In this document: positions 4,095 to 47,966 of the stretch, in pieces
How the letters are laid out: each line of letters starts with the position of its first letter
Numbering within the stretch: position 1 is the stretch's first letter
Source: Candidatus Multivorans sp.
GTDB lineage: Bacteria; Acidobacteriota; Thermoanaerobaculia; Multivoradales; Multivoraceae
DNA: 64,000 nt
Direction: 5' to 3'
Assembly (NCBI GenBank): GCA_965224025.1
Contig: OZ245033.1
Location: forward strand, 4,983,676-5,047,675
Position numbers and translations under genes: made by a program
The notes under the pieces: model-generated
Told to the model about the DNA's origin: nothing
Database searches by the model: none
Seen by the model: the letters and a program-made list of their open reading frames with translations, nothing else

Positions 4095-4202
4095 CGGGCT
4101 GCCAGTCTAGGAGTGTCCGCAGCGTTGTCGCTGCGCTGTCGCGCAGGGAACAGGCAGCGAGTAGCCAACGTTACAGCGGCGTCGTGGGTTCATAGAGTTG
4201 GC

Positions 4203-4358
4203 CGCGCTGGGCAGCGAGGCCGCGCAGGCACTGGTGTGTTGGCGCCCGACTAGGAGTTTGGCCCGGACCGTGATCGGCGCTCTGACGCTGGCGGCGCGGC
4301 TTGTGTCGCGACCCCGTATGCAAGATTGAGCTTTTCGCCGCGGTCTCTGCCCAGCGCG
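4203..4358 (+). ncRNA. Putative IS110 bridge RNA core in the left end
   Basis: 4203-4224 pairs with 4339-4358 and encloses CTAGGAGT (4250-4257) and ATGCAAG (4318-4324), which match the element junctions. Confidence 0.6.
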
Positions 4359-4391
4359 ACGATTGGATTCCACATCTACGGGAGGCAGGGG

Positions 4392-5711: not shown

Positions 5712-5778
5712 ATCGCGCAACCTGCGCTGCCAACAAGGAACCCCTACCCGTTTGTTCCATGCAAGACTGCGCAGGCTC

Positions 5779-11001: not shown

Positions 11002-11061
11002 CGATCGGCTGACCACGAAGTGGTCGCCGACCTTTGGCCGGCGCGTGTTTCTGGCCGCCTT

Positions 11062-11157
11062 AGTCGGTTAGTGCGAGAAACCGTGCGAGTTGTGCGAGAG
11101 TTAGTGCGAGAAAGGGACGGGTAGATGCGGGTGGATGCGGGTAAATGCGGGTGAGTG
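11062..11157 (+). repeat. Left-end repeats of the phage-like element
   Basis: TTAGTGCGAGAAA at 11068 and 11101, GTGCGAG at 11083 and 11092, then four 10-bp CGGGTRRRTG units (11118-11157). Confidence 0.9.
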
Positions 11158-11390
11158 TGGCGCGGCTCGTGGCGGCGCTCAGCGACGCAGGAGTGGTGGA
11201 CCCGGGACGGGTGGCGCAGGAGCTCGGACGACGGTGCGCCGGCATGCGCGTGCCAACCGAGGCGGCTGTGGAGCGCACCGTGACGGCGGCCGAGCGGTCA
11301 GAGCTGGCGCGATGCGTGGGGAGCGCCGAGGAGCTGGAGGACGCGGCGGGAATCAGTCGGCGCCACGCGAGGCGACTGAAAGGGGTCTAG
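11145..11390 (+). CDS. Small HTH protein, possibly a Mor/C-like activator
   Basis: C-terminal AEELEDAAGISRRHARRL HTH-like segment; Mu-like context. Confidence 0.4.
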   Translation: MRVSVARLVAALSDAGVVDPGRVAQELGRRCAGMRVPTEAAVERTVTAAERSELARCVGSAEELEDAAGISRRHARRLKGV

Positions 11391-12402
11391 CGCTGATCGC
11401 CACTGCGCCGGCATCGAGCATGGCCGCGAGGCGGGGGTCCCAGTCCGGGTCCGCATCGAGCCGCTCGACGCAGCTCGGGTGTAGCGACTGAACGGCGGCG
11501 CCGGTGTGCGGCACAGGGCGACAGAACGGCGGCCACACCCGATAGAGGCCGCCCCGCGAAACGCCGATCGGCGCCAGCGGGTCTGGGTCGGGATGGTCAC
11601 CCTCTCGAGGGTGGACAGACAGGCCGGCCGCCGCGATGTGCTGCCACATCCAGTTCAGGGCAATGTCCGACAGCCCCCGCACGGCCCGGCCGCCGCCGAC
11701 GTCGCTGTGCACGCCGGGAAACCAGACCTGGTGCAGTTGCTGTCGCGCCCCCGGCGCGTTGCGCCAGAGTGTCGGACGGAACGGGCGACGGGCTTCGTCG
11801 ATCGCGAGGGCGTGGCATGCGATCTCGACGTGGTCGCCCAAAGAGACGTCGTGGAAGCGGTGGCGTCCAGCAGACAGCCAGTCCAGCGGCTCGGGGACGC
11901 CCAGAGCTCCGACAGTGTCCCAGACTCCGACAAATCGAATCGGGGCGTGCCGGCCGAGCAATTGTTCGGCGACCGCCATTCGCTGTTTGCCGGATCGATA
12001 TACCGCCATCGCCTGCCGGGCGACTCGCCGAGAGTCGGCCGCTCGCTTCCTCGTCGCCCTGTCCCACTCGGGGACGGAGGGGATGCCGCACAGTCCGATC
12101 AGGCCGGCGAGGCTGCGGGCGGTATAGGCGCCGCGGCTGTAGCCGAGAGCCCAGATCCTGTCGTCCGGATCCCAGACTTCAACAAGCCAGGCATACGCAT
12201 CCTCGACGTTTTTTTGCAGCCCGAGGCCGAACGCGCCGCCGCGGAAACGGTCCCATCGACCCGTGCCGACGCCGGGGTCGTAGTACGTCTTGACGCCTTG
12301 CTTGACCGCATGCCAGGTGCGGCAGACGTTCGTCGGCCGCACCGCGTCCGCCTCGTTCCAGGTCCCGTCGAACAGGAGCACCAAGTCTGACCCGTGCCTC
12401 AC
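11353..12402 (-). CDS. DUF2235 alpha/beta hydrolase (Tle1-like phospholipase domain)
   Basis: DGTWN, YDPGVGT, GYSRGA, GVWDTV, HALAIDE, WFPGVHSDVGGG; GTG start overlaps the upstream TGA. Confidence 0.88.
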   Translation of the reverse strand: MRHGSDLVLLFDGTWNEADAVRPTNVCRTWHAVKQGVKTYYDPGVGTGRWDRFRGGAFGLGLQKNVEDAYAWLVEVWDPDDRIWALGYSRGAYTARSLAGLIGLCGIPSVPEWDRATRKRAADSRRVARQAMAVYRSGKQRMAVAEQLLGRHAPIRFVGVWDTVGALGVPEPLDWLSAGRHRFHDVSLGDHVEIACHALAIDEARRPFRPTLWRNAPGARQQLHQVWFPGVHSDVGGGRAVRGLSDIALNWMWQHIAAAGLSVHPREGDHPDPDPLAPIGVSRGGLYRVWPPFCRPVPHTGAAVQSLHPSCVERLDADPDWDPRLAAMLDAGAVAISARPLSVASRGAD

Positions 12403-12806
12403 CGCCGCCCCTTCCAGGCACGCAAGCCTTCGATGACCCTGGTCGCCTCTGCGCTCGTGCGGACGCTTGTCAGCCGTTGGCTGCGCTCCAGCCACGTCGC
12501 GAGCGCCGCCTCGGTCAAACCAAGCTCGGCGCGCAGGTCGTCGATCAGGCGCCGCTGAGAAGCGGTTACCATACGGACGACGCCGGCCGGGAGTCGGGCC
12601 GGCGGCCGGCCCCTCGGCCGGCGCTTCGGCTTGGGCACGCCCAGGCGGCGCAGCAGTTCGCTGGCGTCGCGGATGTTCAGATCCGTGCAGCTCTTCGCGC
12701 CCCACCCCTCGTCGAGCATCCGTTCGTAGGTCTCCCTGTCGACGCCGGCGGCGCTCCTGGCGGTGTGGATGGCGCGAACCTGCGACGCCGTGATCGGGGC
12801 GGTCAT
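12399..12806 (-). CDS. GemA/DUF1018-like protein (Mu gp16-like)
   Basis: RAIHTARSAAGVDRETYERML...SCTDL...ATRVIEGLRAW pattern. Confidence 0.75.
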   Translation of the reverse strand: MTAPITASQVRAIHTARSAAGVDRETYERMLDEGWGAKSCTDLNIRDASELLRRLGVPKPKRRPRGRPPARLPAGVVRMVTASQRRLIDDLRAELGLTEAALATWLERSQRLTSVRTSAEATRVIEGLRAWKGRR

Positions 12807-12807
12807 C

Positions 12808-13263
12808 TCACCCTTCCCGTGTTGCCTCGCTGTCGCCCGCCTCGCTCTCGTCAAGCGCGTCGAGCTTTGCCTGGTGTGCGACATCGATCCGGGTTACCGC
12901 TTCCTCGTAGGCGCCGCCGAGCGCCGCCTTGCCCGCGGTCCACCGCTCATTCCATTCGGAACGGACGCCGGCGATCGCTTTGCCGCGGTTTCGGTTCCAC
13001 TGGTGGGTGAAGGCGAGCTCGTCTGCTCGGTACTTTGCCGCGGCGGCACTTCTCGCCTCGCCGCGCTCGCGTTCGAGGTCGCGGATGCGTCGTCGGCGGA
13101 CCCATTCCCGGTCCTTTTTGGCCCGCTGCTCGAGGTAGGCGCGGTAGCGCTCGGCTTGACGTCGCCGGATGGCTTCGCGCTTGGCCTGGTAGTCCTTGGC
13201 GGCCTGGTAGCGCTCGTGGAAATCGGCCCGGATGCGGTCCGCGTCTTCGTGCGTGACCACCAC
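12808..13263 (-). CDS. Hypothetical charged helical phage protein, possibly 5'-truncated
   Basis: Stop lies 1 bp from the gemA-like start; no clear RBS. Confidence 0.5.
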   Translation of the reverse strand: MVVTHEDADRIRADFHERYQAAKDYQAKREAIRRRQAERYRAYLEQRAKKDREWVRRRRIRDLERERGEARSAAAAKYRADELAFTHQWNRNRGKAIAGVRSEWNERWTAGKAALGGAYEEAVTRIDVAHQAKLDALDESEAGDSEATREG

Positions 13264-13264
13264 G

Positions 13265-13351
13265 GACGAGCAGCCCGTGCCGCTGATCGCGCCGGCGACT
13301 CCGACGCTGACGCGCGCCGGCCTGCGCGGCTTCCGCGGGGCGATCGGATGA
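13265..13351 (+). pseudogene. 3' remnant of a gene upstream of the tail terminator (Mu gp36-like C-terminus?)
   Basis: DEQPVPLIAPATPTLTRAGLRGFRGAIG* with ATGA overlap on the next start; no convincing own start. Confidence 0.45.
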
Positions 13352-13830
13352 GCGAGGGCCGCATGTCCCTGGACGCCTGGCGCGAGCGTCTCGAGACGTT
13401 CCAGCCCCGGAGCCTCACGGTGGACGGCGAGGCGCCGCCGCCGCTCGGCGAGGACGTGGACATCGACGCGACGACGGTCGACGAGGCCGCCCGCGCCGGC
13501 GCCCGCCGCGACGGCCTGTGGCTGGTCTGGTCTGCGGAGACCGGGCCGTCGAGCGACATCATCGGCAGGACGAGGCAGTTGCGCCGCGCCGAGGTGGTCG
13601 TGCTGTCCCGCGTGGCCGATCGCCGCGCCGGCGCGCCGTTCTCGGCCCAGGATGCCCTGGACCGGCTGCGGGCGCGAGTGGACGCCGCGCTGCTCGGCTG
13701 GATCCCTCCGGGCGCGATGACGCCCGTCGATTTCGTGCGCGGCGCAGCCCTGGCGCCGGGCAAGGACGGCGCCGCCTGGTGGGCCGACGCCTACGCCGCC
13801 GACCGCCTAGTTTCCGCGGACGGAGCATGA
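13348..13830 (+). CDS. Phage tail terminator / Gp37-like protein
   Basis: LRARVDAALLGWIP...WWADAY; lies immediately before the tail tube gene. Confidence 0.65.
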   Translation: MSEGRMSLDAWRERLETFQPRSLTVDGEAPPPLGEDVDIDATTVDEAARAGARRDGLWLVWSAETGPSSDIIGRTRQLRRAEVVVLSRVADRRAGAPFSAQDALDRLRARVDAALLGWIPPGAMTPVDFVRGAALAPGKDGAAWWADAYAADRLVSADGA

Positions 13831-13843
13831 GGAGGAGGATGCG

Positions 13844-14854
13844 ATGACGTTGTTGGCGATGAAGAAGGTGTTGCTCTACAAGCCGGAGGCGGCCTACGGC
13901 GTGGCGCCCGCCGCCTTCACCGGCGCCGACGCGATCGAGGTGCACGAGCCGGATCTGACGGCGCTCGACGGCGGCACCGTGAGCCGGGAGCTGATGTGGC
14001 CGTATTTCGGGGCCAGCGACCCGGTCCAGGTCGACTCGCACGTGCGGCTGGCCTTCAGCGTGGAGCTGACGAGCGGGGGCGGCTTCACGCCCGCCACCGA
14101 GGCGATCTCGGCGCCGAAGTTCGGGGGCCTGCTCAAGGCGTGCGGGATGAAGGAGACGACCGGCAAGGCGGCCGTGGCCGACACCAACAACTCGAAAGTC
14201 GAGTACGCGCCGGAGACGAACGCCTCCGGCTCCTCGGTGACGCTGATCTGGAACATGGACGGCCAGCAGCACAGGCTGCTCGGCGCCCGCGGCACCTGGA
14301 CGCTGGAGTTCGCCAGCAAGGAAATCCCCCGGATCCGGTTCGAGTTCACGGGGCTATGGGCCTCGCCGAGCTCCATAACCCAGATCGACCCGGGGGGCTA
14401 CGTCGGCTGGCAGGAGGCCGTCGCGGGCTCGAACGCGGCGTCCACGTTTTTGATCCACGGCACGCACGACCTGGCGCTCCACCGGCTGTCCGTCGCCCTC
14501 GGCGCGCAACCGGTGCACCGCGAGGTGGTGGGCGCCGACAACGACGTGCCGATCACCGGCCGCGAGACGACGGGCAGCGTGACGATGGACGCCGAGAAGC
14601 TGCTGGCCTGGAACCCGTTCCGCCTGGCGCAGAAGGCGACCAAGGACGCGCTGCAGCTCGCGCACGGCTTCACCGACTCGGCGAAGAGCATGCTCGCGGC
14701 CGGGAACCGCGGCAAGATCGTGGTGCTCGACGCCCCGCAGGTCGTGCTCTCCGAGCCGCGCTACGGCGACGACCAGGGCGTGGCCACGATCGAGGCGACG
14801 CTGACGATGGTGCCGGAAAGCGGCAACGACGAAGTGAAGTTGACGTTCCAGTGA
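13844..14854 (+). CDS. Phage tail tube protein (non-contractile)
   Basis: KPEAAYGVAP, LLKACGM, LLGARG, SGNDEVKLTF; GAGGAGG RBS. Confidence 0.85.
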   Translation: MTLLAMKKVLLYKPEAAYGVAPAAFTGADAIEVHEPDLTALDGGTVSRELMWPYFGASDPVQVDSHVRLAFSVELTSGGGFTPATEAISAPKFGGLLKACGMKETTGKAAVADTNNSKVEYAPETNASGSSVTLIWNMDGQQHRLLGARGTWTLEFASKEIPRIRFEFTGLWASPSSITQIDPGGYVGWQEAVAGSNAASTFLIHGTHDLALHRLSVALGAQPVHREVVGADNDVPITGRETTGSVTMDAEKLLAWNPFRLAQKATKDALQLAHGFTDSAKSMLAAGNRGKIVVLDAPQVVLSEPRYGDDQGVATIEATLTMVPESGNDEVKLTFQ

Positions 14855-14882
14855 GCGGACCCCCTGGTCGAGGAGGAATCGC

Positions 14883-15290
14883 ATGACGTTCAGGCTGGCC
14901 GACCCCGACGCCGTCTACGAGACGGCGGTCACGATCTCGGTGCCCGCTTCCGGCGGACCGGAGGAGCGGGAATTCACGGCGCACTTCCGGCTGCCGGCCC
15001 CCGCGGCCGTCCGGGCCGCGGCTCTCGAAGGCGACCCGCAGTTCATGCTCTGCGTCCTCGCCGGCTGGGACGGCATCGAGGGCCACGACGGCAAGCCGCT
15101 CGATTTCTCGCCCGCGAACGTCGAGAAGCTGGCCGGGATCGCCTACTTCGCGCGCGGCGTGGCCGCCGCTTTCGAGCGCTTCTCGCTCGGGCTGCCGGGA
15201 AAAACGCCCGCGCGGTCGGCCGGCGGTTCGTCGCTCGCCGCGGCCGCGACGACCGACAGGAAGACGCGCGGGCGTTCGGCATCGACGTAG
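14883..15290 (+). CDS. Tail assembly chaperone (gpG-like)
   Basis: GWDGIEGHDGKPLDFS motif; slippery G GGA AAA at 15197-15203. Confidence 0.8.
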   Translation: MTFRLADPDAVYETAVTISVPASGGPEEREFTAHFRLPAPAAVRAAALEGDPQFMLCVLAGWDGIEGHDGKPLDFSPANVEKLAGIAYFARGVAAAFERFSLGLPGKTPARSAGGSSLAAAATTDRKTRGRSAST

Positions 15291-15565
15291 GGGCTGTTGT
15301 CCGCGAGGAGCCGGCGTGCTGGGTGCTACCTTCGGCGTGGGACGCCGCGCGAGCGTTCTCGGCCTGCGCGACCCAGTGGCGGATCGGCCCTGCCGGCGGG
15401 CTGCTGGGCCTGGACTACGCGGGCGCCCGGGCCGCGGTGCGGGGCGTGACCGCGGACGGCCTGGGCAAGGAGGCGTCGGGCCGCTCGCTGCGCTGGCGGC
15501 GGGTATTCGAGCTGCTGCGCGAGATGGAGGCCGCGGCGCTCGACGCGCAGCCGCGGTGGCGGTGA
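15203..15565 (+). CDS. gpT-like / DUF1799 segment reached by -1 frameshift
   Basis: The -1 frame is open from 15203 and contains ATQWRIG...GLDY...LREMEAAAL. Confidence 0.75.
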   Translation, partial: NARAVGRRFVARRGRDDRQEDARAFGIDVGAVVREEPACWVLPSAWDAARAFSACATQWRIGPAGGLLGLDYAGARAAVRGVTADGLGKEASGRSLRWRRVFELLREMEAAALDAQPRWR

Positions 15566-15580
15566 CCGAGCCCGCCCGCC

Positions 15581-15697
15581 TCAGCGTTGCTGGTCGGCGG
15601 CGAACGAGAGGGCGGCGATGACGGCCCGGATCACCAGCGCGCAGGCGGTGCCGCCGATTACTGCCGCGTACAGCGTCATGATGACAAACCCCCACAT
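15581..15697 (-). CDS. Small antisense hydrophobic peptide (38 aa)
   Basis: MWGFVIMTLYAAVIGGTACALVIRAVIAALSFAADQQR fills the gap before the tape measure gene. Confidence 0.35.
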   Translation of the reverse strand: MWGFVIMTLYAAVIGGTACALVIRAVIAALSFAADQQR

Positions 15698-15713
15698 GGG
15701 GGAACCCTAGCAA

Positions 15714-18230
15714 ATGCCCGCTGAGTACCGCCTCGCGCTGCGCCTGACGGCCGACGCCAAGGGGTTCGTCGGCGCGGTGACCGCGGCGGACAAGCGAGTC
15801 GGCCGGCTCGCCGGGACGGTACGGCGGTCCAGCAGCGAGACAAAACAGGCGGCCGGCGCCCTGAAGCTGTACGGCGCCCAGGGCCAGGTGGTGTCGACGG
15901 TGTCGACGCGTCAGGCGGCCGCGGTCGACAGAGCGGCCCGGGCCGCCGACAGGGCAGGCAGGGCCTCCGCGGGAGCGGCGCGGCGCACCCGGGGCCTTGC
16001 TTCGGCGTTTCTCGCCGCGCATGGGCGGGCGATCGCCTACGGCCTGGGTCTGGGCGGCGGCCTGCTCGTGTCCCTTCGGCAGCTGGGGGGCGCGGCGCTG
16101 GACGCGGCGGAAGCGAACCGGGAGCTCGACAACCGCCTGCGCCTGGTGACGGAGTCGGAGGCTGAACTCGCGGCGGTGCGGTCCCAGCTCCTGGACGTCT
16201 CGGTGCGCACGCGGACGGCGATCGACGGCACGGTGGTGACATACAGCCGGCTGGCGCTTGCGCTCGAACATCTCGACCGCCCCGCGTCACAGAGCGTCCG
16301 CGTGGTCGAGCTGCTGAACAAGCAGCTCGCGATCGGCGGCAGCGTGGGCAGCGAGGCGCAGGCCGGCCTGATTCAGTTTGCCCAGGGCCTGGCCTCGGGC
16401 AGGCTGCAGGGCGACGAGCTGAGGTCGGTGATGGAAAATCTTCTGGGCGTGCAGCAGGGGCTGATCATCGGCTTCCGGAAGCTCAGGGAATCGGGCCAGA
16501 TCGACATCGACGTGACGAGGGCCAATTTGCGTGAGTTGGCGTCCGAGGGCGAGATCACCGCCGAGCGGCTGATTGACGCGGTCCTGGCGTCGGGTGAGTG
16601 GACGGACAGGACGTACGAGAGCGTCGAAGCGGGCATCAGGTCGAGCTTCAGGGCCCTGCGCAACGAGATCCGGGAGAGCTTCCGCGAGGGGCTGGAGGAG
16701 ACGTCGGGGTTCGTGGCCGCGACGGTGCAGCGGATGACGGAGGGTATGTCGCGGGCCAGGCGGATTCGGAGCCAGACGGTCAGGGTGTACGAGCTGGACT
16801 CGGATCCGCTGACGGCCCGTGACCTGATCGGCATGGACGAGCAGGAGATGCGCGACCTGGTTGGCGGCTTTGTGCGCGAGCTGGAGGCCGTGGCCGAGGG
16901 GGCCGGCGTGACCGCCGACTCCATCATCGGCCGCCGGCTGGCCGCGCTGCTGCAGCCGCGGATCGACATTCTGCGGGAGGAACTGCAGCGCGCCGGCGAG
17001 ATCGATCCGTCCGGCGCCGCGGCGCCGCCGGATCCGTCCGCGGAGCCGGATCCGGAACGCCTGCGCGAGATGTTGCGTCTCGAGCGCGAGTTCGCGACTG
17101 CGCGCGAACGGATTCAGCTCGACTACCAGGACCGCGTGAGAAAGATCGAAGCGGTGGCGGATGGCGAGCAGCGCGAGCGATTGCTCCGGCGCGCGGAGAC
17201 GATCCGGAGCGAGGGCATCGCCAGGCTGGGGAAAATCGCTGACCGCGAACGCGAGGCCCAGGAGCGCGCCGCGGCCGCGGACCGCGAACGCGCCGACTCG
17301 GCGCAGGCGTCGGCCGCCGCGCTCGTGCTGTTGCGCGAGGAGAACGAGCGGCTGCGGCAGGGAGGACTGGAAGCCCTGAAGGTGATCGAGGAGGAGCGCG
17401 AGGCCCGCGAACTGCTGGCGCAGGTCCGCCGGGCGCACGCGGACGCCACGCCGCAGGTGCTCGCCGGCCTGGAGGCCGAGGCGCTGGCGGAGCGGAAGCT
17501 GACGAAAGAGTTGGAGGCCCAGGCGGAGTCGCGAAACGCCAGGATGCAGGCGTTCGTGGGCTGGATGTCCGCCGGGTCGGCCGCGTCCGGTGAGGCCGCG
17601 GGCGAGCAGGCCGACCTGGCGGGATCGCTCGGCGTGGCGGACGAGGCCCTGCGCCGAATCACGGGCGGCCTCGGGCAGTTCGCGAACGCGAACGCCAAGG
17701 CTTTCCGGCTGCACCAGGCCGCGGCGTTGGCGAGCGCGGCGGTTTCAACGGCCAAGGGCGCGACGGACGTCCTGGCAGACACGACGATCCAGCCGACGTG
17801 GCTGCGGCCGGTGATGATGGGCCTGATCCTGGCCGCCGGCGCGGCGCAGATCGCGGCGATCCGTTCACAGAGGCCCCCCCAGGCGTTCGCCTACGGCGGC
17901 GTGATCGACCGCCGCGCGGAGTTCTCGTTCGGCGGCGGCCGCCGCGGCCTGGCGGGCGAGGCGGGCCCCGAGGCGATCCTTCCCCTGCGCCGGCTGCCGA
18001 GCGGCCGCCTGGGCGTCGGCGCCGCCGCCGGCGGCCGCGCGCCCGTCTTCGCGCCGCGCGTCGAGGTGGTCGTCCAGGCGCCGATGGGCGGCCGCCCGGA
18101 CGACGCCGCCCTGTGGGGCCGCGAGGCGGGCCGCGGCGTGGCGACGGGCCTGCGCCCGCTGTTCCTCGAGTTCGTGCGCGAGGAGCGCCGCCCGCTGGGC
18201 GCGCTCGACCCGGACGGAGACTCCGTCTGA
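15714..18230 (+). CDS. Tail tape measure protein
   Basis: GLASGRLQGDELRSVMEN N-terminal domain; C-terminal FAYGG...GEAGPEAILPL; Ala-rich helical. Confidence 0.92.
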   Translation: MPAEYRLALRLTADAKGFVGAVTAADKRVGRLAGTVRRSSSETKQAAGALKLYGAQGQVVSTVSTRQAAAVDRAARAADRAGRASAGAARRTRGLASAFLAAHGRAIAYGLGLGGGLLVSLRQLGGAALDAAEANRELDNRLRLVTESEAELAAVRSQLLDVSVRTRTAIDGTVVTYSRLALALEHLDRPASQSVRVVELLNKQLAIGGSVGSEAQAGLIQFAQGLASGRLQGDELRSVMENLLGVQQGLIIGFRKLRESGQIDIDVTRANLRELASEGEITAERLIDAVLASGEWTDRTYESVEAGIRSSFRALRNEIRESFREGLEETSGFVAATVQRMTEGMSRARRIRSQTVRVYELDSDPLTARDLIGMDEQEMRDLVGGFVRELEAVAEGAGVTADSIIGRRLAALLQPRIDILREELQRAGEIDPSGAAAPPDPSAEPDPERLREMLRLEREFATARERIQLDYQDRVRKIEAVADGEQRERLLRRAETIRSEGIARLGKIADREREAQERAAAADRERADSAQASAAALVLLREENERLRQGGLEALKVIEEEREARELLAQVRRAHADATPQVLAGLEAEALAERKLTKELEAQAESRNARMQAFVGWMSAGSAASGEAAGEQADLAGSLGVADEALRRITGGLGQFANANAKAFRLHQAAALASAAVSTAKGATDVLADTTIQPTWLRPVMMGLILAAGAAQIAAIRSQRPPQAFAYGGVIDRRAEFSFGGGRRGLAGEAGPEAILPLRRLPSGRLGVGAAAGGRAPVFAPRVEVVVQAPMGGRPDDAALWGREAGRGVATGLRPLFLEFVREERRPLGALDPDGDSV

Positions 18231-18574
18231 TGGCCACGCCGTCGCTGCCCACCGCGCCGCTGTCCGTCGGCTCGTCGGTCCAGGTCGAGCCGCTCGTGGA
18301 CCGCCTGCGCCTGGGCGACGGCCACGTCCAGGACGCCGCCCAGGGCGTGAACGCCCTGGCGCGCTCGTGGCGGGCGGTGTGGAAGGCGCTCGACCAGGCG
18401 GCGCACGACACCCTGGTGGACTTCTTCGCCGCCCGCGCCGGCCACGAGCGGTTCCTGTGGCAGTCGCCGCTGGACAGCGCGCAGCGCAAGTGGGTCTGCG
18501 TCTCGTGGTCGACGGAGATCGTCAGCAGCGGCGTGTACAACGTCCAGGCGACGCTGGAGCGGCGATATGCCTGA
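18230..18574 (+). CDS. Minor tail protein, lambda gpM-like
   Basis: LGDGHVQ...GVN, FLWQSP, WVCVSW; position after tape measure. Confidence 0.85.
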   Translation: MATPSLPTAPLSVGSSVQVEPLVDRLRLGDGHVQDAAQGVNALARSWRAVWKALDQAAHDTLVDFFAARAGHERFLWQSPLDSAQRKWVCVSWSTEIVSSGVYNVQATLERRYA

Positions 18575-19277
18575 TCTCGCCACCCGCCTCGACCTCGACG
18601 CCGGCGCGGTGGTCGACCTGTTCGAGATCCAGACCGACGCGAACGCGATCCTGTTCCGGTTCTCGCCCGGTCCGCGGGCCGACGGCACGGCGATCCTCTT
18701 CGGCGGCGAGCGCTACGACCCCGTGCCGATCGCCGTGTCCGGGCTCGGCTTCGGCGGCGGCGCGCGCTCGAGCGGCGGCTCTCCCCGGCTCACCCTGGGC
18801 CGGCTCGACCCGGTGATCACCGGCGATCCGCGCGGCGACGACTGGCTGGGCTACCGCCTGCGCTGGCGACAGACACTGGCCCGGCATCTCGACGGAGCGG
18901 CCGACGCGGACAGCGCGGCGTACCACGAGGAGATGCTGTGGATTGGCCGGGAGCGCTCCCGGACCCGCGCCGAGGTCGAGTTCGAACTCACCACGCCGCT
19001 CGAGCTGGTCCACCTGCACCTGCCCCGGCGGCAGGTGCTCCGCGAGTACTGCCCCTGGCGGTACCGCCTCTGGACCGGCGCGTCGTGGGACTACGCGAAG
19101 GCGCAGTGCCCGTACCGGGGCGCGGCGCGGTTCGACGTCTCGGACAATCCGACGTCGGACAGCAGCCAGGACAACTGCAGCGGCACGCCTGCCGGCTGCC
19201 GGCTGCGTTTCCCGGATCCGGCGGCGCTGCCCTTCGGTGGTTTCCTGGGCGTCGGCGGCGCCGCGAGGCCGCGGTGA
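18567..19277 (+). CDS. Minor tail protein, lambda gpL-like
   Basis: LPRRQ, four Cys (CPWRY, CPY, CSG, CRLRF), LPFGGF. Confidence 0.9.
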   Translation: MPDLATRLDLDAGAVVDLFEIQTDANAILFRFSPGPRADGTAILFGGERYDPVPIAVSGLGFGGGARSSGGSPRLTLGRLDPVITGDPRGDDWLGYRLRWRQTLARHLDGAADADSAAYHEEMLWIGRERSRTRAEVEFELTTPLELVHLHLPRRQVLREYCPWRYRLWTGASWDYAKAQCPYRGAARFDVSDNPTSDSSQDNCSGTPAGCRLRFPDPAALPFGGFLGVGGAARPR

Positions 19278-20104
19278 GCCACCTGGTGCCGGCGGCCGCC
19301 GACAGCGAGGCGCGGCGGTACTTCGAGGCGGCCTGGCCCGACGAAGCTGCGGGCTACGTGGCAGCCGGCGGCGGCTTCCGGCCGCTCTCCGCGTTGACCT
19401 CCGGAGGCGGCCACGTGGAGCACGTCTGGCCGCCCCGGGACGAAGCGGCGGTCGTCCTGCATTCGCATCCCGGAGGCGAGCGGTTCCCGTCCAAGGCCGA
19501 CATGACGGCGCAGGTGGCGATGGGCCTGCCGTGCGGCGTCGTGCCGGTGGTCGGCCCGGAGCTCGCCGAGGAAGCCCTGGGCGGCGCCGATCCCGGCAGC
19601 CGGCCGCCGATCGATCTCGCGGCCGCGTACGCGGCGCGCCGCGCCGGCTCTCCGCGCGCCGGTGGCCCGTCGCTGTTCGCCCAGGGGCCGGCGGCGGCGA
19701 AGCTGCCGGCCGCGAGTCCGCCCTGGCAGGGCCGCCCGTGGCTGCACGGAGTCTCCGACTGCTGGACGCTGGCCGGCCACTGGCTGCGCGCGCAAGGCTT
19801 CGACGTGCCGCCCATGGCCTACGGCTGGGGCTGGCAGCGGCGCGGGAAGGACCTGTTCCTGGCCGGCCTGGCGGAGGCCGGCTGGGGGGTGCTGGCGCGC
19901 GGCACGGAGCGACCCGGGGATCTGCTGCTCATGCGGCTGCGCGCGCCCGTCGTGGAGCACTGCGCGGTGCTGCTGGAGGGCGGCCGCATCCTGCACCACC
20001 CGGGCTCCCCGGCGCCGGACGCCCCGTGCGCGCTGTCCCGGCGTGAGCCGCTGGGGCGGTGGGGCCGCCACGTGGCACTGGCGGTGAGGCCGCGGCCGGC
20101 ATGA
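19274..20104 (+). CDS. Tail assembly protein, lambda gpK-like (JAB/MPN + NlpC/P60)
   Basis: HSHP...PSKAD, GVSDCW, HCAV...ILHH. Confidence 0.88.
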   Translation: MSHLVPAAADSEARRYFEAAWPDEAAGYVAAGGGFRPLSALTSGGGHVEHVWPPRDEAAVVLHSHPGGERFPSKADMTAQVAMGLPCGVVPVVGPELAEEALGGADPGSRPPIDLAAAYAARRAGSPRAGGPSLFAQGPAAAKLPAASPPWQGRPWLHGVSDCWTLAGHWLRAQGFDVPPMAYGWGWQRRGKDLFLAGLAEAGWGVLARGTERPGDLLLMRLRAPVVEHCAVLLEGGRILHHPGSPAPDAPCALSRREPLGRWGRHVALAVRPRPA

Positions 20105-23100
20105 TCGTCCGTGTCCAGGGCGCGCCCGAACTCCGGGAGCTGCTGGGCGCAGACGAGGTCGACGTCGGGGAGGCGCCGTCCGCCGGCGCCGGTCTGCGGG
20201 CGCTGTTCGAGGTGCCCGGCGCCGAGGACCTGGTGCGCGCCGGGGCCTGGTCGGTCCGCGTCGACGGCCTGGAGGTCCAGGAGGCCGCCCTCGGCGCTGC
20301 CCTGGCCCGCCCGGCGCGGTCGCTCGAGCTGCGCGCGGCGCCGACCGCGAGGTTCGAGGGTCCGGCGGCGGTGGCGCCGTGGGTGTACTGGACGATCGTC
20401 GGCGCGACCCTGGCCGCGACCGCCTACTCCATCGCCACGCTGCCCTCGGTCCGCGACTACGCGGACCGGGAGGAGCCCGGCAACCGGCAGCGGCACCTGT
20501 TCAGTGGGCCGGTGAACTCGGTCGAACAGGGCGGCCCCGTGCCGCTCGTCTTCGGCACGCGGGTCCGGGTGGGGTCGGTGGTCGTCTCGGCCTCGACGTC
20601 GTCCGACCTGGACGAGACGGGCGGCGGCGGCGACGGCGGCATCATTCAGCTTCCGCAGCCGAGTCGGCAGATCGGGGGTGGCGCCGGCCGGCCGGAGACG
20701 CACTCCGTGTTCGGCGCCGTGCTCTCGACCGTGCGCACCGAGGAGCCACCCGACCCCGGCCCCCAGGGTCCGGACTTGCCGGATCCGGACGACGACGACA
20801 CCGGTACGGATCCCCCGGGCCCCGGCGACCGGCAGCCGGGCGACCCGCCGACTCCGGACCGCTACGCGCCGGCGAAGCTGGACGGCGTGAGCCGGGTCCG
20901 GATCGTGGAGATGCTGGGCGAGGGGAAGATCGAGGGCTTGCGCGACCCGGGCGTGGTGCTGACCAGGTCGCTGATCCTGAGCGGCGCCGCGGCCGCCGGC
21001 GAGGCGGTGCTGAAGGTGTTCGGATCGCCTGATGACGATCTGTACGACCTGGATGTCTCCGCGGACGACGACGGAGACGTCCTGGAGACAGCGGCGTGCG
21101 CCGGCTGCAAGGTCCGCATCGACCGAGGGGCCGCGTGGCTTGCCGGCGCGGTCCAATCGGTCACTGCGGCGGGGAAGATCCGGTTCCTCAGGGAGGGCGG
21201 CGCCGGCGCGCTCACCGCGGGCGCCGGAGCGGCGATCTCGTTCCCGGATGAGGAGAATCGCCTGGCCAGCGTGTTCCTGGACGGCACGCCCCTGAGGACG
21301 GCGGCGGGCCAATACAATTTCAGCGGCGTGGTCGACCTGGAGTTGCTGCGCGGCGGCGCTGGCCAGACGGGCCTGGACACGATCGACGCAGTCGAGACGC
21401 AGCAGCAGGTCGACGTCGCGCTGGGAACGGCCGCGACGTCGCGGAACAGGGCCGGCCAGGCAGACGCGGTCCGGGTGACGCTCCGCGCCGCCGCGCTGTG
21501 GCGCGAGCTCGACGGGGACATCGCGCCGGCGCGGGTCCTGGTCGAGATCACGATCGGTTCGAAGACCTGGGGCTACCGACTGCAGGAGAAGCGCACGTCG
21601 CCCGGCGAGGTGAGCGTGGTGCTGCCGCTGGGGTCGGAGACCAGCGTCAAGGTGCGGCGGACCACCGTTCCGGCGGCGGACCCGGACACGGTGCGCGACG
21701 AGGTGCGCTGGGCGTCGGTCACCTGGATCAGGCATGTGCGCCAGACCTACCAGTCGTCGGCCCTCGTGGGCCTGACGCTGGACGCGGACCGGATGGGCGG
21801 CCGGTTGCCGGCGCGGAGCTATGAGATCGCCGGCCTGGAAGTGGGAATTCCGTCCGGCTGGAATCGGCGCACCCGAGCCTATCCGCCGGTCTGGAGCCGG
21901 ACCATGGCGGCGGACCCGGCCGCGGTCGACAATCCGGCCTGGATCCTTTTCGGGCTGCTGCGCAACGTCGATTGGGGCATCGGCGCCGAGCCGGGCATGC
22001 GCGCGGCGGCGTGGGCGGCGCGGGACGCGTTCTACGAGTTCGGCCGGTGGTGCGACCAGAGCGTGGCGCTCGGCGCCGAGTCGGCGATGGAGCCGCGCTG
22101 GCGCTTCAACGCGGCGTTCAGCCGCCGGATGAAGGCCAGGCGGTTGCTGAAGCTGATCGAGAGCGCCTGCCGGTGCGGGATCGAGTTCCAGGGCGGCCAG
22201 CTGAGCCTGTACTGGGACGCCGACGCGGACCCGGCGGCCATGCTCGGCGACGCGAACGTGCAGGACGGCGAGTTCGAGTACGGGTCGCGGGCGCCGGAGT
22301 GGCACGAGCGGGCGTCGGTGGTCGCGGTCACGTTCAACGATCCGGACGACGGGTTCCGGGCCTCGGTGGAGCTGGTGATCTCCCGGAACCTGATCGAGAA
22401 GTACGGCTGGCGCCAGCGCGACGTGACGGCGATGGGCTGCACCTCCCGCGGCCAGGCGCACCGGATAGGCCGGCTGCTGCTCTACGAGCAGGAGCACGAG
22501 GCGGAGACGTTCTCCTGCACCGCCACGTGGGACAACGCCCTTGTGCGCCCCGGCCAGGTCGTCCAGGTCGCGGACTCCGACGTCACGACGTCGCGGACGA
22601 CGCGGCGCGTGGTGGAGGCTGCAGCCGTCGACGGCCGGCTCGTGCTCGATCAGGCCGTGAGCGCCGCCGACGCGGCGCTTATCCGGTCCCTGTGGGTGCG
22701 TCGCCTCGAGGGCGAGGCGTCCGGGGATGCCAGGGGCCGCAAGGCCGGCCTCGCGCAGTACCGCACGGCTGACGGCTACCGGTTTGGCGCCGGGGGGGCG
22801 ACGTGGGGGCTGAGCGTCTCGCGGGCGGGCGGCACGGCTGTGCCGCTGCGCAAGGTGCAGGGCGTCGTCCAGATCGAGCTGGCGACGGCCGGCCGCAAGC
22901 CCCTGCTGTACCGCGTGACGGAGGTGCGGCGCGTCGACACGATCCGCTACCGGATCTCGGGCCACCGCCACCAGCCCGGCAAGTACGGCGTGGTGGAGAG
23001 CCGGCGCGCCCTGGGGTCTCCGGAGAAACGAATTTCCACGGGGCTCAAGCCGCTGAAGGCAGTCACCCTGCGCGAGGAGGACTACGAGGACGGCGCGCTC

Positions 23101-25740
23101 GGGACGCTGGCCAAGGTGGTCGTCGGGGTCGAGTCGGCGGAGGCCGATCCGCGGCAGAGGGCGCTCGACATCCAGATCCGGTACGCGCCGACCTCGGCGG
23201 CGGCTGTCGCGGACACTCCGTGGAGACGCCTGCGGACCCGCGAGGTCGCGCCTTCGAGGGTGGGCTGGTATCAGGCCCGCGGGCGGTGGGTCGGCGGCGG
23301 CACGCGCTCCGGGTGGCGCGAGTCGGCCGTTCTGCATGCCGACGGCCCTGGCGACGTGCTGGGCGGCGACCCCACGGTGCCGCAGTGGGCGATGGTGATC
23401 GACCGCACCGTCAGGGCGCCGACCGCGGCGGCCGTGGACCTGGCGACGGAGTGGCACCTGTCCGGCGCCGCGGGCGGCTGGGGCGGCTCGCGCACGGTGA
23501 TCATCGGCGGGGTGTCGTCGACTGAGGAGGCGCGACTGAAACGGCTCGCTCCGGGCAGCCTGCTGGCGCTGTTCGACGACCTGGACAACTGGCTCCAGGC
23601 GGCGGCGCCGGCGGCGCCTGCGTTCAGCGGCGCAGGCGCGGCCCGGAACGCGGCGATCGCGCTCGAGCACGTGCGGAGCAAGGGCGCCCAGCCGTCGGCC
23701 GGGCCGCTGTCGGTGCGTTTCTTTCCGTCAGGCCTCGACGGCCCGGACCTGGCGACCATCGCGTCGTTTACGCTGAGCCCCGCGGACCCGGGGATGGTCC
23801 TGGGGTGGGCCGCCGTTGCGACGAAGCCGGACTTGTGGAAGATCCAGCTGGGGCTGCCCGCGCCCGGCGGCGGCGTCAACTACGCAGGGCAGCCATCCTA
23901 CGTGGACGGTGCCAAAACCCGGCTGGCCAGCGGGGATCCGGTGGTCTCGGGAGCCGCGCCGCCGACATCGGCGTTTCTGGCCGCGATCTATTCCGGCTCG
24001 CAGCTCGACAAGAGGCTCTACGCCCGGATCCAGGGCGTGAGGAGGGATGGGGCGGCCGTCGTCGGCTACGGCGCGGACGTGGCCTCCGCGGTGATCGAGA
24101 TCAGCACGCTGTCCGCCCCCTCGCTCGTCGCGACGCCGGGGAACGCCCTGATCGTCCTGACCTGGAGCCCGGTGCCGGGCGCGACCGGCTACGAAATTTT
24201 CCGCAACACCACCGGAACGCAGCCAGACCCGAGCACGAGTCCGACCTGGTCGACAGGAGATGTGGCACGGTGGGTCAACACGGGCCTGGCGAACGGAACA
24301 AGGTACTACTACTGGATCCGCGCAACGACGTCCGCCGCCGCGAGCTCGCTGTCCCCGCGCGCGTCTGCAGTTCCGACCGCCGGCACGGCGGTGATCGCGC
24401 CGCACTTCCCCTCGTCCTCGGTGGCTGTGGCGATCACCCGGGGCGCCGTGGGGAGTCAGGTCCTGCCGGCGGCTTCCGGATCGGCGCCGGCGTACGCCCT
24501 GCCGGGGTTGCCGTCCTGGCTCTCGTTCAGCGCCAGCACCAGGCGGCTGTCGTGGACCGCGTCGGCGGTCGTCGGCACGCGGACGCTGACGCTCACGGCG
24601 ACGAACGCGGCCGGGGCGGACACGCTGGCCGTCAACGTGACGGTCGGGCTGTCCGCCCCCTCGCTCGACGCGACGCCGGGGAACGCCCTGATCGTCCTGA
24701 CCTGGAGCCCGGTGCCGGGCGCGACCGGCTACCAAATTTTCCGCAACACCACCGGAACGCAGCCAGACCCGAGCACGAGTCGGAGCTGGCGGGCAGGAGC
24801 TACGGTGCAGTGGGTCAACACGGGCCTGGCGAACGGAACAAGGTACTACTACTGGGTCCGCGCAACGGCGGGCGGCTCCGCGAGCTCGCTGTCCCCGCGC
24901 GCGTCTGCAGTTCCGACCGCCGGCACGGCGGTGATCGCGCCGCACTTCCCCTCGTCCTCGGTGGCTGTGGCGATCACCCGGGGCGCCGCGGGGAGTCAGG
25001 TCCTGCCGGCGGCTTCCGGATCGGCGCCGGCGTACGCCCTGCCGGGGTTGCCGTCCTGGCTCTCGTTCAGCGCCAGCAGGCGGCTGTCGTGGACCGCGTC
25101 GGCGGTCGTCGGCACGTGGCCGCTGACGCTCACGGCGACGAACGCGGCCGGGGCGGACACGCTGGCCGTCAACGTGACGGTCGCCGGCGTCGGCGCATGG
25201 ACGGCGTGGCAATCGGCCGCAAATCTTGCCTGGAGCGCGGACCTGGACGACGCCGACGTTTCGTCGCAGGCCGCCGAGACCGACAACCGCATGTGGAGGT
25301 GGGACACATCGGGGGGGGGGCTGGCTGACTGGTCGGGGGGCGGGCTGTGGGCCGGTGCGTCCACGTTCGGGGTGATGGCCACGATGAACGCCGTGATCGA
25401 CGGGGCTGTGGTCCTGGTGCAGGTGTTTCAGTGCTACGGCACCCCGGCCAACAACGTGCGCCGTACCGACACCGACGTGTATCTGAACAGCGAGTTCACG
25501 CCGCTTTTGTTCGCCGGCGATCTCGACACGCGAAGGTCGGAGAGCTTCGATTTCACGCAGGCAGTGCTTATCTACTCCGCCTCGAACAGGCCTTCCGGGC
25601 TGAGCTCGACAGATCGCGCTATCGGGTTTCTGCGCTGGCGCCGGGACCTCGGCGGCAATGGCGCCGGGACCCAGGAGCTTGCGGTCGTCCCCGGCGGCTT
25701 CGGGTCGTACCGGTTCTACAGTCGGAGGTGGGAGCTGTGA
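20101..25740 (+). CDS. Fused gpI-like + gpJ-like central tail fibre with FN3 and Ig-like repeats
   Basis: N-terminal FSGPVNSVEQGGPVPLVFG (gpI-like); GEGKIEG, DNPAW and GCTSRGQAHRIG (gpJ-like); LTWSPVPGATGY...GLANGTRYYYW (FN3); LPSWLSFS (He_PIG-like). Confidence 0.88.
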   Translation: MIVRVQGAPELRELLGADEVDVGEAPSAGAGLRALFEVPGAEDLVRAGAWSVRVDGLEVQEAALGAALARPARSLELRAAPTARFEGPAAVAPWVYWTIVGATLAATAYSIATLPSVRDYADREEPGNRQRHLFSGPVNSVEQGGPVPLVFGTRVRVGSVVVSASTSSDLDETGGGGDGGIIQLPQPSRQIGGGAGRPETHSVFGAVLSTVRTEEPPDPGPQGPDLPDPDDDDTGTDPPGPGDRQPGDPPTPDRYAPAKLDGVSRVRIVEMLGEGKIEGLRDPGVVLTRSLILSGAAAAGEAVLKVFGSPDDDLYDLDVSADDDGDVLETAACAGCKVRIDRGAAWLAGAVQSVTAAGKIRFLREGGAGALTAGAGAAISFPDEENRLASVFLDGTPLRTAAGQYNFSGVVDLELLRGGAGQTGLDTIDAVETQQQVDVALGTAATSRNRAGQADAVRVTLRAAALWRELDGDIAPARVLVEITIGSKTWGYRLQEKRTSPGEVSVVLPLGSETSVKVRRTTVPAADPDTVRDEVRWASVTWIRHVRQTYQSSALVGLTLDADRMGGRLPARSYEIAGLEVGIPSGWNRRTRAYPPVWSRTMAADPAAVDNPAWILFGLLRNVDWGIGAEPGMRAAAWAARDAFYEFGRWCDQSVALGAESAMEPRWRFNAAFSRRMKARRLLKLIESACRCGIEFQGGQLSLYWDADADPAAMLGDANVQDGEFEYGSRAPEWHERASVVAVTFNDPDDGFRASVELVISRNLIEKYGWRQRDVTAMGCTSRGQAHRIGRLLLYEQEHEAETFSCTATWDNALVRPGQVVQVADSDVTTSRTTRRVVEAAAVDGRLVLDQAVSAADAALIRSLWVRRLEGEASGDARGRKAGLAQYRTADGYRFGAGGATWGLSVSRAGGTAVPLRKVQGVVQIELATAGRKPLLYRVTEVRRVDTIRYRISGHRHQPGKYGVVESRRALGSPEKRISTGLKPLKAVTLREEDYEDGALGTLAKVVVGVESAEADPRQRALDIQIRYAPTSAAAVADTPWRRLRTREVAPSRVGWYQARGRWVGGGTRSGWRESAVLHADGPGDVLGGDPTVPQWAMVIDRTVRAPTAAAVDLATEWHLSGAAGGWGGSRTVIIGGVSSTEEARLKRLAPGSLLALFDDLDNWLQAAAPAAPAFSGAGAARNAAIALEHVRSKGAQPSAGPLSVRFFPSGLDGPDLATIASFTLSPADPGMVLGWAAVATKPDLWKIQLGLPAPGGGVNYAGQPSYVDGAKTRLASGDPVVSGAAPPTSAFLAAIYSGSQLDKRLYARIQGVRRDGAAVVGYGADVASAVIEISTLSAPSLVATPGNALIVLTWSPVPGATGYEIFRNTTGTQPDPSTSPTWSTGDVARWVNTGLANGTRYYYWIRATTSAAASSLSPRASAVPTAGTAVIAPHFPSSSVAVAITRGAVGSQVLPAASGSAPAYALPGLPSWLSFSASTRRLSWTASAVVGTRTLTLTATNAAGADTLAVNVTVGLSAPSLDATPGNALIVLTWSPVPGATGYQIFRNTTGTQPDPSTSRSWRAGATVQWVNTGLANGTRYYYWVRATAGGSASSLSPRASAVPTAGTAVIAPHFPSSSVAVAITRGAAGSQVLPAASGSAPAYALPGLPSWLSFSASRRLSWTASAVVGTWPLTLTATNAAGADTLAVNVTVAGVGAWTAWQSAANLAWSADLDDADVSSQAAETDNRMWRWDTSGGGLADWSGGGLWAGASTFGVMATMNAVIDGAVVLVQVFQCYGTPANNVRRTDTDVYLNSEFTPLLFAGDLDTRRSESFDFTQAVLIYSASNRPSGLSSTDRAIGFLRWRRDLGGNGAGTQELAVVPGGFGSYRFYSRRWEL
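24109..25183 (+). repeat. 540-bp tandem duplication (FN3 + Ig-like unit) inside the tail fibre gene
   Basis: CTGTCCGCCCCCTCGCTCG starts at both 24109 and 24649; units are near-identical, with a 3-bp deletion in unit 2. Confidence 0.93.
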
Positions 25741-26246
25741 GGTTTCTGGTCAACGGCCCGACGCGGCTGGCCTACCGCGCCTGCGAGTCGCGCGACTTCG
25801 ACTCGCTGCACGAGATGATGCGCGGCACCCGTACCTGGGCGGCGCTGCATGCCGCCGTGGCCGCTCAACTCGACGCCGACGACGGCGACGACTACCGGGC
25901 GCTGGCGGCGGGATCGCGGGTCTTGATCGCCACGGACGGCGGCGCCGTCGTCGGCATGGTCCGGGCCGTTCTTTCCTCCGGCGAGCGCTGGACGGCGAAC
26001 GTGGAATCTCGCGGCGCCTCGGGCCAGGGCGAGCGCCCGCTCGAGTTCGCCGGTGACGCCTTGGCGTGGCTGCACCTGCTCGGCGTGGAGGCGGCCGAGG
26101 TCACGGCCTACTGCCGGGCGTGCCCGAGCCCGTTCCACGACGGCCTGGTGCCGCCCCGGAGGGTGTCCTGGTCGGCCGACCCGATCCCGCGCGACCCGCT
26201 GGGCTTGCCACGCGACCTGACCTGGGCCAGGGTGCAGACCGGCTAG
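25737..26246 (+). CDS. Hypothetical protein, weakly GNAT-like, last gene of the element
   Basis: GTGA overlap with the fibre stop; YRACESRDFDSL and VLIATDGGAVVG pattern. Confidence 0.5.
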   Translation: MRFLVNGPTRLAYRACESRDFDSLHEMMRGTRTWAALHAAVAAQLDADDGDDYRALAAGSRVLIATDGGAVVGMVRAVLSSGERWTANVESRGASGQGERPLEFAGDALAWLHLLGVEAAEVTAYCRACPSPFHDGLVPPRRVSWSADPIPRDPLGLPRDLTWARVQTG

Positions 26247-26352
26247 CTGTCGTCCTCCACCGCAGTGGGTCTCGCGACCTTCGACCTCGAACCGCGACTC
26301 ACGCCGTTCCCGCTGGCAGCCGGGGAATCGCCCGCAGGCCGACTGCACAGCG

Positions 26353-26416
26353 TTTCTCGCACTAATGCACAGTCGTTTCTCGCACTAATGGGGTCCATTT
26401 CTCGCACGAACCGAGT
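26353..26416 (-). repeat. Right-end repeats of the phage-like element
   Basis: TTTCTCGCAC(T/G)AA at 26353, 26376 and 26398 (23- and 22-bp spacing). Confidence 0.92.
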
Positions 26417-26704
26417 CTTCGGCGGCAGCGGACCAGAAGGTCCGCGCACCCAGAGACGGGCTGTGCCGTGAGCGGGCCTCTGTTCTGCAACCGTTGGAGC
26501 GACACTGCGAGCGGTGGGTTCGCAGTAGAGACTCTCGCTCCGGGAAAGGCCGTGCACTGGGTGCGCGGACCTGCCATCCGTGCACCCGATGACGGGCGCA
26601 CGGACTGGTTCGCGGGTGGCGCGGATCGCGCCACCCGGGTTCTGGTCCGCATCCGGGCGACGCCGCGAAGCGGCGAGCTATACAGCATCGCGCAGAATAG
26701 ACCC

Positions 26705-47848: not shown

Positions 47849-47966
47849 TATCCACAGCGGTGGTCCGTTGCGCTGCCGCATAGGGAACATGTGCGTTCGG
47901 GTGTCGGGCCGCAGCGATTTTCGCCCACTTGCGGCAGGACATTTCATCCCTGCTGCTCCACTCTCG

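Follow-up and report, generated by a model that had tools for sequence, protein, structure and literature searches.

A 15.4-kb tail-only element with transposition ends, inserted at least twice in a Candidatus Multivorans genome and probably derived from a Mu-like siphophage lineage

F-type tailocins (F-pyocins) are head-less clusters of λ-like, non-contractile tail genes that occupy fixed chromosomal loci and carry their own regulators and a lysis cassette. Phage satellites, among them P4, the phage-inducible chromosomal islands (PICI), the capsid-forming PICI, and PLE, are small elements that depend on a helper phage. Transposable prophages, according to a published study, are recognized by their target duplications, 5 bp for Mu and 6 bp for B3, together with a length of 36–39 kb (PMC8705779). 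Here, we describe an element, called E1, that lies in a 64,000-nt stretch of Candidatus Multivorans DNA (the window). E1 retains both transposition ends, a whole non-contractile tail module, a GemA protein, and a Tle1-like hydrolase. There is good support for at least two insertions of the whole 15,355-bp unit, both made through a 3-bp staggered cut of the target. The best reading is that E1 represents a non-autonomous, internally deleted derivative of the Mu-like transposable siphophage lineage of this genus.

E1 resembles each of the described systems in part. Like the engineered mini-Mu and mini-D3112 derivatives, which the same study portrays as moved in trans, as a unit, by a helper (PMC8705779), E1 possesses both phage ends and lacks a transposase. 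Unlike mini-Mu as portrayed there, E1 is natural, its cargo is no marker but an entire tail module of 12.9 kb, and its target duplications are 3 bp rather than 5 bp. The B3/D3112-type siphophages (JBD67, JD18, vB_Pae_CF78a) share with the E1 lineage a Mu-type portal, MuF, GemA, multi-site ends, and a λ-like flexible tail. Those phages are given as 36–39 kb with 5–6-bp duplications (PMC8705779), whereas the present lineage makes 3-bp duplications and has a full form of 49.9 kb, in which the early genes, terminase, and portal are read leftward and the protease, capsid, and tail genes rightward. E1 itself, at 15.4 kb with 3-bp duplications, falls outside both values used to recognize transposable phages, and it lacks heads as well as a transposase. 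E1 is like F-type tailocins in its genes, a complete non-contractile tail gene set without head genes. Unlike those clusters, E1 lies between transposon ends, occurs in two copies, and lacks a lysin, while its relatives in two congeners, G030 and G033, have both a lysin and a transposase. Like a phage satellite, E1 is small and would need a helper phage to spread; unlike one, E1 has no integrase, primase or other replication genes, or helper-interference genes, carries tails instead of capsid-remodelling genes, and would move by DDE transposition. A literature search, with supplements and the main survey of transposable phages outside its range, retrieved no transposable or Mu-end-bounded tailocin and no natural tail-only mini-Mu. 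E1 thus ranks as a variation on known kinds of element, namely mini-Mu, defective Mu-like prophage, and F-type tailocin, and is not categorically new.

The window makes up the last 64 kb of the 5,047,675-bp contig C1 of genome G000, a metagenome-assembled genome (MAG) in three contigs. E1 copy 1 occupies positions 11062–26416 and is bounded by inverted ends that carry repeated GTGCGAGAAA boxes. The TTAGTGCGAGAAA box, with at most one mismatch, occurs eight times in the window (0.02 expected), in three clusters at 11068–11113 (plus strand), 26353–26410 (minus), and 61737–61794 (plus). The left end (11062–11113, plus) is a terminal inverted repeat with two full boxes, at 11068 and 11101, and two partial GTGCGAG boxes, at 11083 and 11092. 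The right end (26353–26416, minus) has three boxes at 22–23-bp spacing, a layout close to that of the right end of an element in congener G026. Counting ends genome-wide, as the earlier sequence-only reading of this DNA had proposed, revealed 17 exact GTGCGAGAAA sites, 10 of them in two E1 copies, three in the related elements E3–E5, and four isolated. GAGAAA clusters are found exclusively at E1 and related elements of this genome, and the only clustered E1-type ends are those of the two E1 copies. The E1 termini start with 5'-AG on the left (11062–11063) and with 5'-AC on the right (26415–26416, complementary strand), not with TG...CA. We note that termini in this family often have TG at one end and AC or AG at the other (E3 and the elements of G033 and G038), and that the full phage of congener G007 has TG at both.

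The second E1 copy emerged from self-comparison of the window, which contains a 2,271-nt perfect inverted repeat (24147–26417 versus 61730–64000) that runs off its end. The right-hand 2,270 bp of copy 2 are inverted at 61731–64000 (minus) and continue at C1:1–13083; a BLAST search of 11001–26500 against the whole genome placed the remainder at C1:1–13084. Copy 2 is complete, inverted, and spans the record origin. The sequence-only reading had noted an identical right end, 35 kb from copy 1, at a different target. That observation holds, with the difference that the end belongs to a complete second copy and is not a lone end. The same reading had suggested that the copy starting at 61731 could be an intact parent prophage. 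It is instead another 15.36-kb head-less element with the same internal junction, which is what that reading had expected beyond position 64000 of a mobile head-less element. The genome contains two head-less copies and no full prophage of the family.

The two copies are 100% identical over 13,084 + 2,271 nt. Their sole difference is the absence from copy 2, at the record junction, of 2 nt (GC) that correspond to window positions 24145–24146, inside the J gene. If real, this gap would frameshift J of copy 2. Because the record junction lies at the start of the 540-bp internal tandem repeat of J, we read the gap as a probable circularization slip. The abutting contig ends are separated by just these 2 nt, as they would be if a circle had been cut at random, in this case where the repeat begins. 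Finally, identity between the copies extends, on each side, one base past the boundaries originally drawn, since the two target duplications, CTT and CAT, share their first and last letters.

Each E1 copy possesses its own 3-bp target duplication. Copy 1 is flanked by CTT at 11059–11061 and 26417–26419, and copy 2 by CAT in element orientation, which is ATG on the plus strand at 61728–61730. No 5-bp duplication was found at either copy. For copy 1, 10 of 11 congener loci have both flanks close together and the element absent. Three of the 11 loci (G018, G012, G005) align through the junction, and in every one the flanks overlap by exactly 3 bp. Moreover, a single contig of source run X2 joins left-flank-like sequence directly to position 26417, and an independently assembled 7,981-nt source-run contig bridges the left junction of copy 1 with 0 differences. 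Copy 2 splits a 1.73-kb insertion sequence (IS; window 60564–61730 plus C1:13084–13650) that has 14 other copies in the genome. Nine of these 14 align through the junction; all nine are intact, and the split halves overlap by 3 bp in 9 of 9. The 3-bp duplication characterizes all five insertions with clear ends, namely E1a, E1b, E3 (CAC), E4 (GAG), and the G007 phage (CTC). The intact ends proposed at 11062–26416 by the sequence-only reading are borne out by the inverted box clusters, the 3-bp duplications, and the empty sites. Of its further suggestion, a trans-mobilized tailocin-like or satellite element, the mobility is upheld by two insertions with duplications and empty sites; the tailocin or satellite function is putative.

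Two accounts would dispense with transposition. In one, copy 2 is an assembly artefact, from a collapsed or mis-joined repeat in the MAG or from a circularization error, and the genome really harbors one prophage remnant. The record does start and end within copy 2 with a junction 2 nt short, contamination of the MAG is estimated at 5.66%, and short source-run contigs break at the element edge. Yet copy 2 has flanks of its own, split IS halves that match nine intact IS copies with a 3-bp overlap, while the flanks of copy 1 match the congener empty sites; each copy displays matched duplications, which mis-joining through the repeat would be apt to disrupt; and contig ends that meet within 2 nt are expected of an opened circle. 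We judge the artefact account largely refuted already and give it very little credence. In the other account, a prophage remnant, already dead, was doubled by segmental duplication or by recombination. E1 has no transposase, and the copies are inverted repeats only 35 kb apart. Identity nevertheless breaks off precisely where the inverted ends do, both copies have a 3-bp direct repeat and a clean empty site of their own, and the same 3-bp rule operates in five independent elements of the family, so this origin, too, is highly improbable. Taken together, the matched duplications, the empty sites, and the bridging contig rule out segmental duplication and make misassembly very unlikely. Replicative inversion was also considered as the origin of the inverted copies and was rejected by a swapped-duplication test, since each copy has its own matched triplet.

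Other repeats lie near the two copies. A second IS sits directly upstream of the one split by copy 2, at window ~58832–60490, and recurs at ~4107–5765 (100% identical, at least 300 nt). A palindrome resembling repetitive extragenic palindromes, with a GGACC-N-GGTCC core, adjoins the right flank of copy 1 (26417–26461) and recurs at 47964–48007, 54175–54235, 55617–55672, and elsewhere in the genome. A 27-bp tandem repeat array at 54983–55279 contains at least eight overlapping 108-nt register copies.

The cargo of E1, called by analysis of G+C at third codon positions (GC3), Pfam, and PHROGs, consists of 13 open reading frames (ORFs), all intact. The rightward ORFs constitute the uninterrupted, translationally coupled non-contractile tail operon described in the sequence-only reading, open from the terminator through J and the last ORF. 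Specifically, the operon encodes a tail terminator (13348–13830, plus; PF23840, E = 1e-10), a tail tube protein (13844–14854, plus; PF18906, 7.2e-13), and the chaperones G (14883–15290; phrog_569/313) and G-T (14883–15565, plus, by a −1 frame; DUF1799, 9.2e-10). A canonical G_GGA_AAA −1 slippery site at 15197–15203 precedes an open −1 frame into the DUF1799 T domain. The 838-amino-acid (aa) tape measure protein follows (15714–18230, plus; PF20155, 2.7e-34), then minor tail protein M (18230–18574, plus; PF05939, 3.3e-19), minor tail protein L (18567–19277, plus; PF05100, 2.6e-32), a K-like protein with JAB and NlpC/P60 domains (19274–20104, plus; PF14464 and PF00877, ~1e-5 each), and a J-like tip or central fibre protein of ~1,880 aa (20101–25740, plus; PF13550, PF05345, PF24801) that contains 540-bp tandem He_PIG/Ig units at ~24108–25187. 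The last ORF (25737–26246, plus; 169 aa) has no Pfam or PHROG match; its homologs sit 3' of J in E3 and in the G030 and G033 elements. Five stop/start overlaps connect these genes: TGATG at tape measure/M, one at M/L, GTGA at L/K, ATGA at K/J, and GTGA at J/last ORF. Ten of the 41 congeners have a homolog of the tube; none of the 59 genomes sampled from other genera does. No relatives of GemA or the tube were found in viral contigs, nor of the tube in JGI metagenome contigs; the tube alignment (A1) was too variable for scanning, and the T-domain alignment (A3) was used instead.

The left arm of E1 is read on the minus strand. Its outermost gene encodes a Tle1-like/DUF2235 alpha-beta hydrolase (11353–12705 as the longest ORF; PF09994, E = 9.7e-69, residues 108–355), whose true start is probably near 12396, just past the GemA stop. 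The full G007 phage and all of the derivatives have homologs of this hydrolase. DNA resembling the Tle1-like/DUF2235 region (window 11644–12372) at ~65–75% identity is present in 42 of 42 genomes of the genus, including a chromosomal paralog at G000:C1:55045–56133. Thus, the phage gene has a conserved host counterpart. Next are a GemA-like protein (12399–12884; PF06252, 9.1e-11; phrog_286, 1.5e-17), which is 66% identical (aa) to GemA of the G026 element and matches nothing in the genome beyond the two E1 copies, and orf151, a 151-aa ORF divergent from the tail operon (12808–13263; supported by GC3 frame analysis). orf151 has no Pfam (E ≤ 5) or PHROG family and no homolog in the G007 phage, and its best Atlas score is 0.75. 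The sequence-only reading had named GemA-like, helix-turn-helix, and DUF2235 genes: Pfam and PHROGs agree on GemA and DUF2235, but no helix-turn-helix family matched any candidate ORF of E1 even at E ≤ 5.

Pfam, PHROGs, and tblastn with the proteins of the full relative detected no transposase, MuB, repressor, Mor, lysin, terminase, portal, protease, or capsid in E1, in keeping with the sequence-only reading, which had listed transposase, repressor, terminase, portal, capsid, and lysis genes as missing. No endolysin or holin matched in Pfam or PHROGs, where NlpC/P60 appears exclusively as a domain of the K-like protein, and no E1 ORF had a Pfam or PHROG match to an integrase, a replication module, or helper-interference genes. 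Scans for a sigma-70-like promoter ahead of the tail operon and for a terminator behind it came up empty, a result that says little at 70% G+C. The search was extended to the whole genome. There, tblastn (1e-5) with TnpA, MuB, Mor, lysin, protease, and capsid of the G007 phage yielded no match, and TnpA of the G030 element likewise had 0 matches, with matches in 8 of 41 congeners. In the window's genome, phrog_310 matches only multicopy, IS-sized ORFs. The Mu-specific families PF09299 and PF02914 gave no match in the genome, and the controls were equally silent, so this result is uninformative. The genome contains no full prophage of the E1 family.

Possible parents of E1 occur in other members of the genus; the congeners are uncultured Acidobacteriota MAGs (Candidatus Multivorans, Holophagales, Thermoanaerobaculia). 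G007 harbors a 49,865-bp prophage whose ends begin TGTTGAG and carry GCGAGAAA boxes. The leftward arm of this phage encodes a regulator, Gam, TnpA (phrog_310), a MuB-like ATPase (phrog_296), GemA, a Mor-like activator, an M15 lysin, the terminase TerL, Portal_Mu, the Tle1-like protein, and MuF, and the rightward arm encodes protease I, capsid, terminator, tube, and the tail module. The tail module shares 31–64% aa identity with that of E1. G009 has the same phage type, split over two contigs. G026 contains a head-defective, multicopy element of ~33 kb, at C2 ~2048840–2074112 and C3:1–17975; two copies share a 10.35-kb overlap at 99.99% identity, and three contig ends bear tube homologs. The G026 element possesses TnpA, MuB, Gam, MuF, capsid, and tail genes, with the portal and protease present as fragments and terminase and lysin not detected. 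Its ends (three boxes, 22–23 bp) and its GemA are the closest to those of E1. TnpA and a MuB-type ATPase are present in the elements of G007, G009, G026, G030, and G033. Paired-box sites in G034, G032, and G038 were pursued as leads to a parent and rejected, as they are solo ends or small elements with unrelated cargo. Specifically, solo family-type ends lie in G032 (C20 ~17960), beside large unrelated ORFs, and in G034 (C1 ~2608360), beside a tail-fibre fragment, and in G038 (C1 ~1538550–1543835) family-type ends enclose a 5.3-kb element whose single encoded protein, 1,245 aa long, matches no family.

The window's genome holds further derivatives of the family. E3 (C1:2368580–2383336, ~14.8 kb) is a second tail-only element. 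E3 is 31–48% identical (aa) to E1, with different ends and a different left arm, and has a Mu-G-like gene at its left end. Given this divergence within one genome, tail-only forms arose at least twice. We note that E3 sits inside a 15.16-kb insertion relative to plasmid contig C2 (~position 38000), that this insertion is flanked by 15-bp direct repeats and includes a tyrosine recombinase C-terminal fragment, and that 40 kb of chromosome around E3 is 90–94% identical to C2:23305–49552. E4 (C1:2261899–2268490, 6,592 bp) shares both of its ends with E3 and encodes solely Portal_Mu, the Tle1-like protein, MuF, a 125-aa ORF, and Mu-G (Phage_tail_S); E4 is a head-gene fragment behaving as a transposon. 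Its portal is 38–44% identical to portals of B3/D3112-type phages. E5 (C1:2918218–~2924800) starts with an E3-type left end, followed by a fusion of MuF to the nuclease-toxin domain PBECR2, a Tle1-like gene, a portal, and the C-terminal part of a terminase; its right end could not be located. In this genome, portal and MuF occur nowhere but in E4 and E5.

Head-less relatives with their own transposase exist in G030 (~25.5 kb, C10 ~1149660–1175180) and G033 (~29.5 kb including an IS21, C1 ~3993840–4023380). Between family-type ends, both elements encode the Tle1-like protein, a lysis region with an M15 lysin, Mor, MuB, an intact 556-aa TnpA, and regulators. These genes are followed by a 123-aa ORF, proteins with fn3 domains or fn3-like stretches in the place of the head genes, the tail genes from terminator through J, and the last ORF. 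Neither element has a terminase, portal, MuF, protease, or capsid. G017 has the layout of G030 from the regulator gene through the tail, the part its contig covers, with TnpA on another contig, and its proteins in the head-gene place are 82–96% identical (aa) to those of G030. The G030 and G033 elements have different flanks, and hence occupy different sites, and their shared DNA is 82–88% identical. Nei–Gojobori ratios of nonsynonymous to synonymous substitution (dN/dS) between them are below 0.5 in 14 of 14 genes tested (0.07–0.46). Among early and lysis genes, the values are 0.20 for TnpA, 0.22 for MuB, 0.32 for the lysin, and 0.07 for Mor; among tail genes, they are 0.16 for the tube, 0.14 for G, 0.28 for the tape measure, 0.18 for M, 0.28 for L, 0.46 for K, and 0.42 for J. 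These ratios indicate that the G030 and G033 head-less elements are maintained under purifying selection. None of five genomes (G030, G033, G017, G008, G036) yielded Portal_Mu or the G007-type capsid; the same portal search responded in four of five positive controls (G000, G007, G009, and, as a fragment, G026; not G025). No target duplications were identifiable for the elements of G030, G033, and G038.

We consider it likely, from these comparisons of sequence, that E1 is a natural mini-Mu that is mobilized in trans and whose tail operon depends on a relative. E1 has lost the transposase, MuB, late activator, lysin, and all head genes; the notion is that a related autonomous element, absent from the present assembly, would supply the DDE transposase and the MuB ATPase. 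The candidate helper type is the G026 element, which has the most similar ends and GemA, though it resides in another species. Because no recognizable promoter precedes the tail operon and E1 encodes no activator, the operon is probably silent unless the Mor-like activator of a relative is provided. Given a helper, transposition would multiply E1, which could then contribute tails. Several points weigh against this proposal. We infer the mobilization in trans, and the helper might be unbinned or lost. The AG/AC termini of E1 are unlike the TG...CA termini of the G007 phage, so that nothing but the two insertions speaks for their activity. The inverted copies might be kept identical by gene conversion, and the insertions therefore need not be recent. 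No single deletion from the gene order of G007 or G026 yields the left arm of E1 (end, Tle1, GemA, orf151). Finally, all 13 ORFs of E1 are intact, and its head-less relatives repeatedly keep complete tail modules; selection for tail production accounts for this no less well than neutral hitch-hiking does.

That last point leads to the strongest rival, in which selection maintains E1 as a mobile element that produces tails, whether as an F-type-tailocin-like weapon or as a "tail-donor" satellite for the heads of a helper. In the tail-donor version, E1 would furnish tails of another receptor specificity and spread by Mu-type transposition plus helper packaging. In its favor, the tail operon is intact, translationally coupled, and endowed with a predicted programmed frameshift, and the divergent E3 attests to at least two origins of tail-only forms. 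The same conclusion is favored by the head-less forms of G030 and G033, which occupy different sites and combine TnpA, MuB, Mor, a lysin, and a full tail with low dN/dS, and by the failure to find Portal_Mu or the G007-type capsid in any of the five genomes searched for them. J, moreover, diverges fastest among the G030–G033 genes, as a receptor-binding protein would. E1 itself, however, has no lysin, holin, Mor-like activator, or transposase, and no sigma-70-like promoter stands before its operon, a weak point at such a G+C content. Its two copies are identical and its nearest homologs are at 35–48% aa, which makes dN/dS impossible for E1. On balance, we regard a selected role for E1 itself as unlikely. 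We speculate, tentatively and with more doubt than conviction, about the genus as a whole: a Mu-like phage may have turned into transposable, head-less, tail-producing elements ("transposable F-type tailocins"), with E1 as a non-autonomous tail cassette. Autonomous forms of 25–33 kb would then carry transposase, MuB, and tail, with a lysin also in the ~25-kb forms; they would trans-activate E1, copy it by transposition, and package it, and a cell or a helper would thereby gain a second tail or receptor specificity.

Mini-Mu elements are laboratory constructs, and E1 is a natural one that has moved, with empty sites resolved to the single base and a whole tail machine as its cargo. Within one genus, the family spans the stages between a transposable phage of 50 kb and giant transposons reduced to tails. 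Also documented is a Mu-like lineage whose duplications measure 3 bp and whose full form reaches ~50 kb, and searches that require 5–6-bp duplications and a length of 36–39 kb would miss such phages. If E1 and its relatives do produce tails, they would provide a testable system, in which transposition is accessible through the ends, TnpA, and MuB, and particle formation through the tail operon. In that event, mobility and variation in copy number would also be open to tailocin-like weapons, which would change the view of how they evolve and spread.

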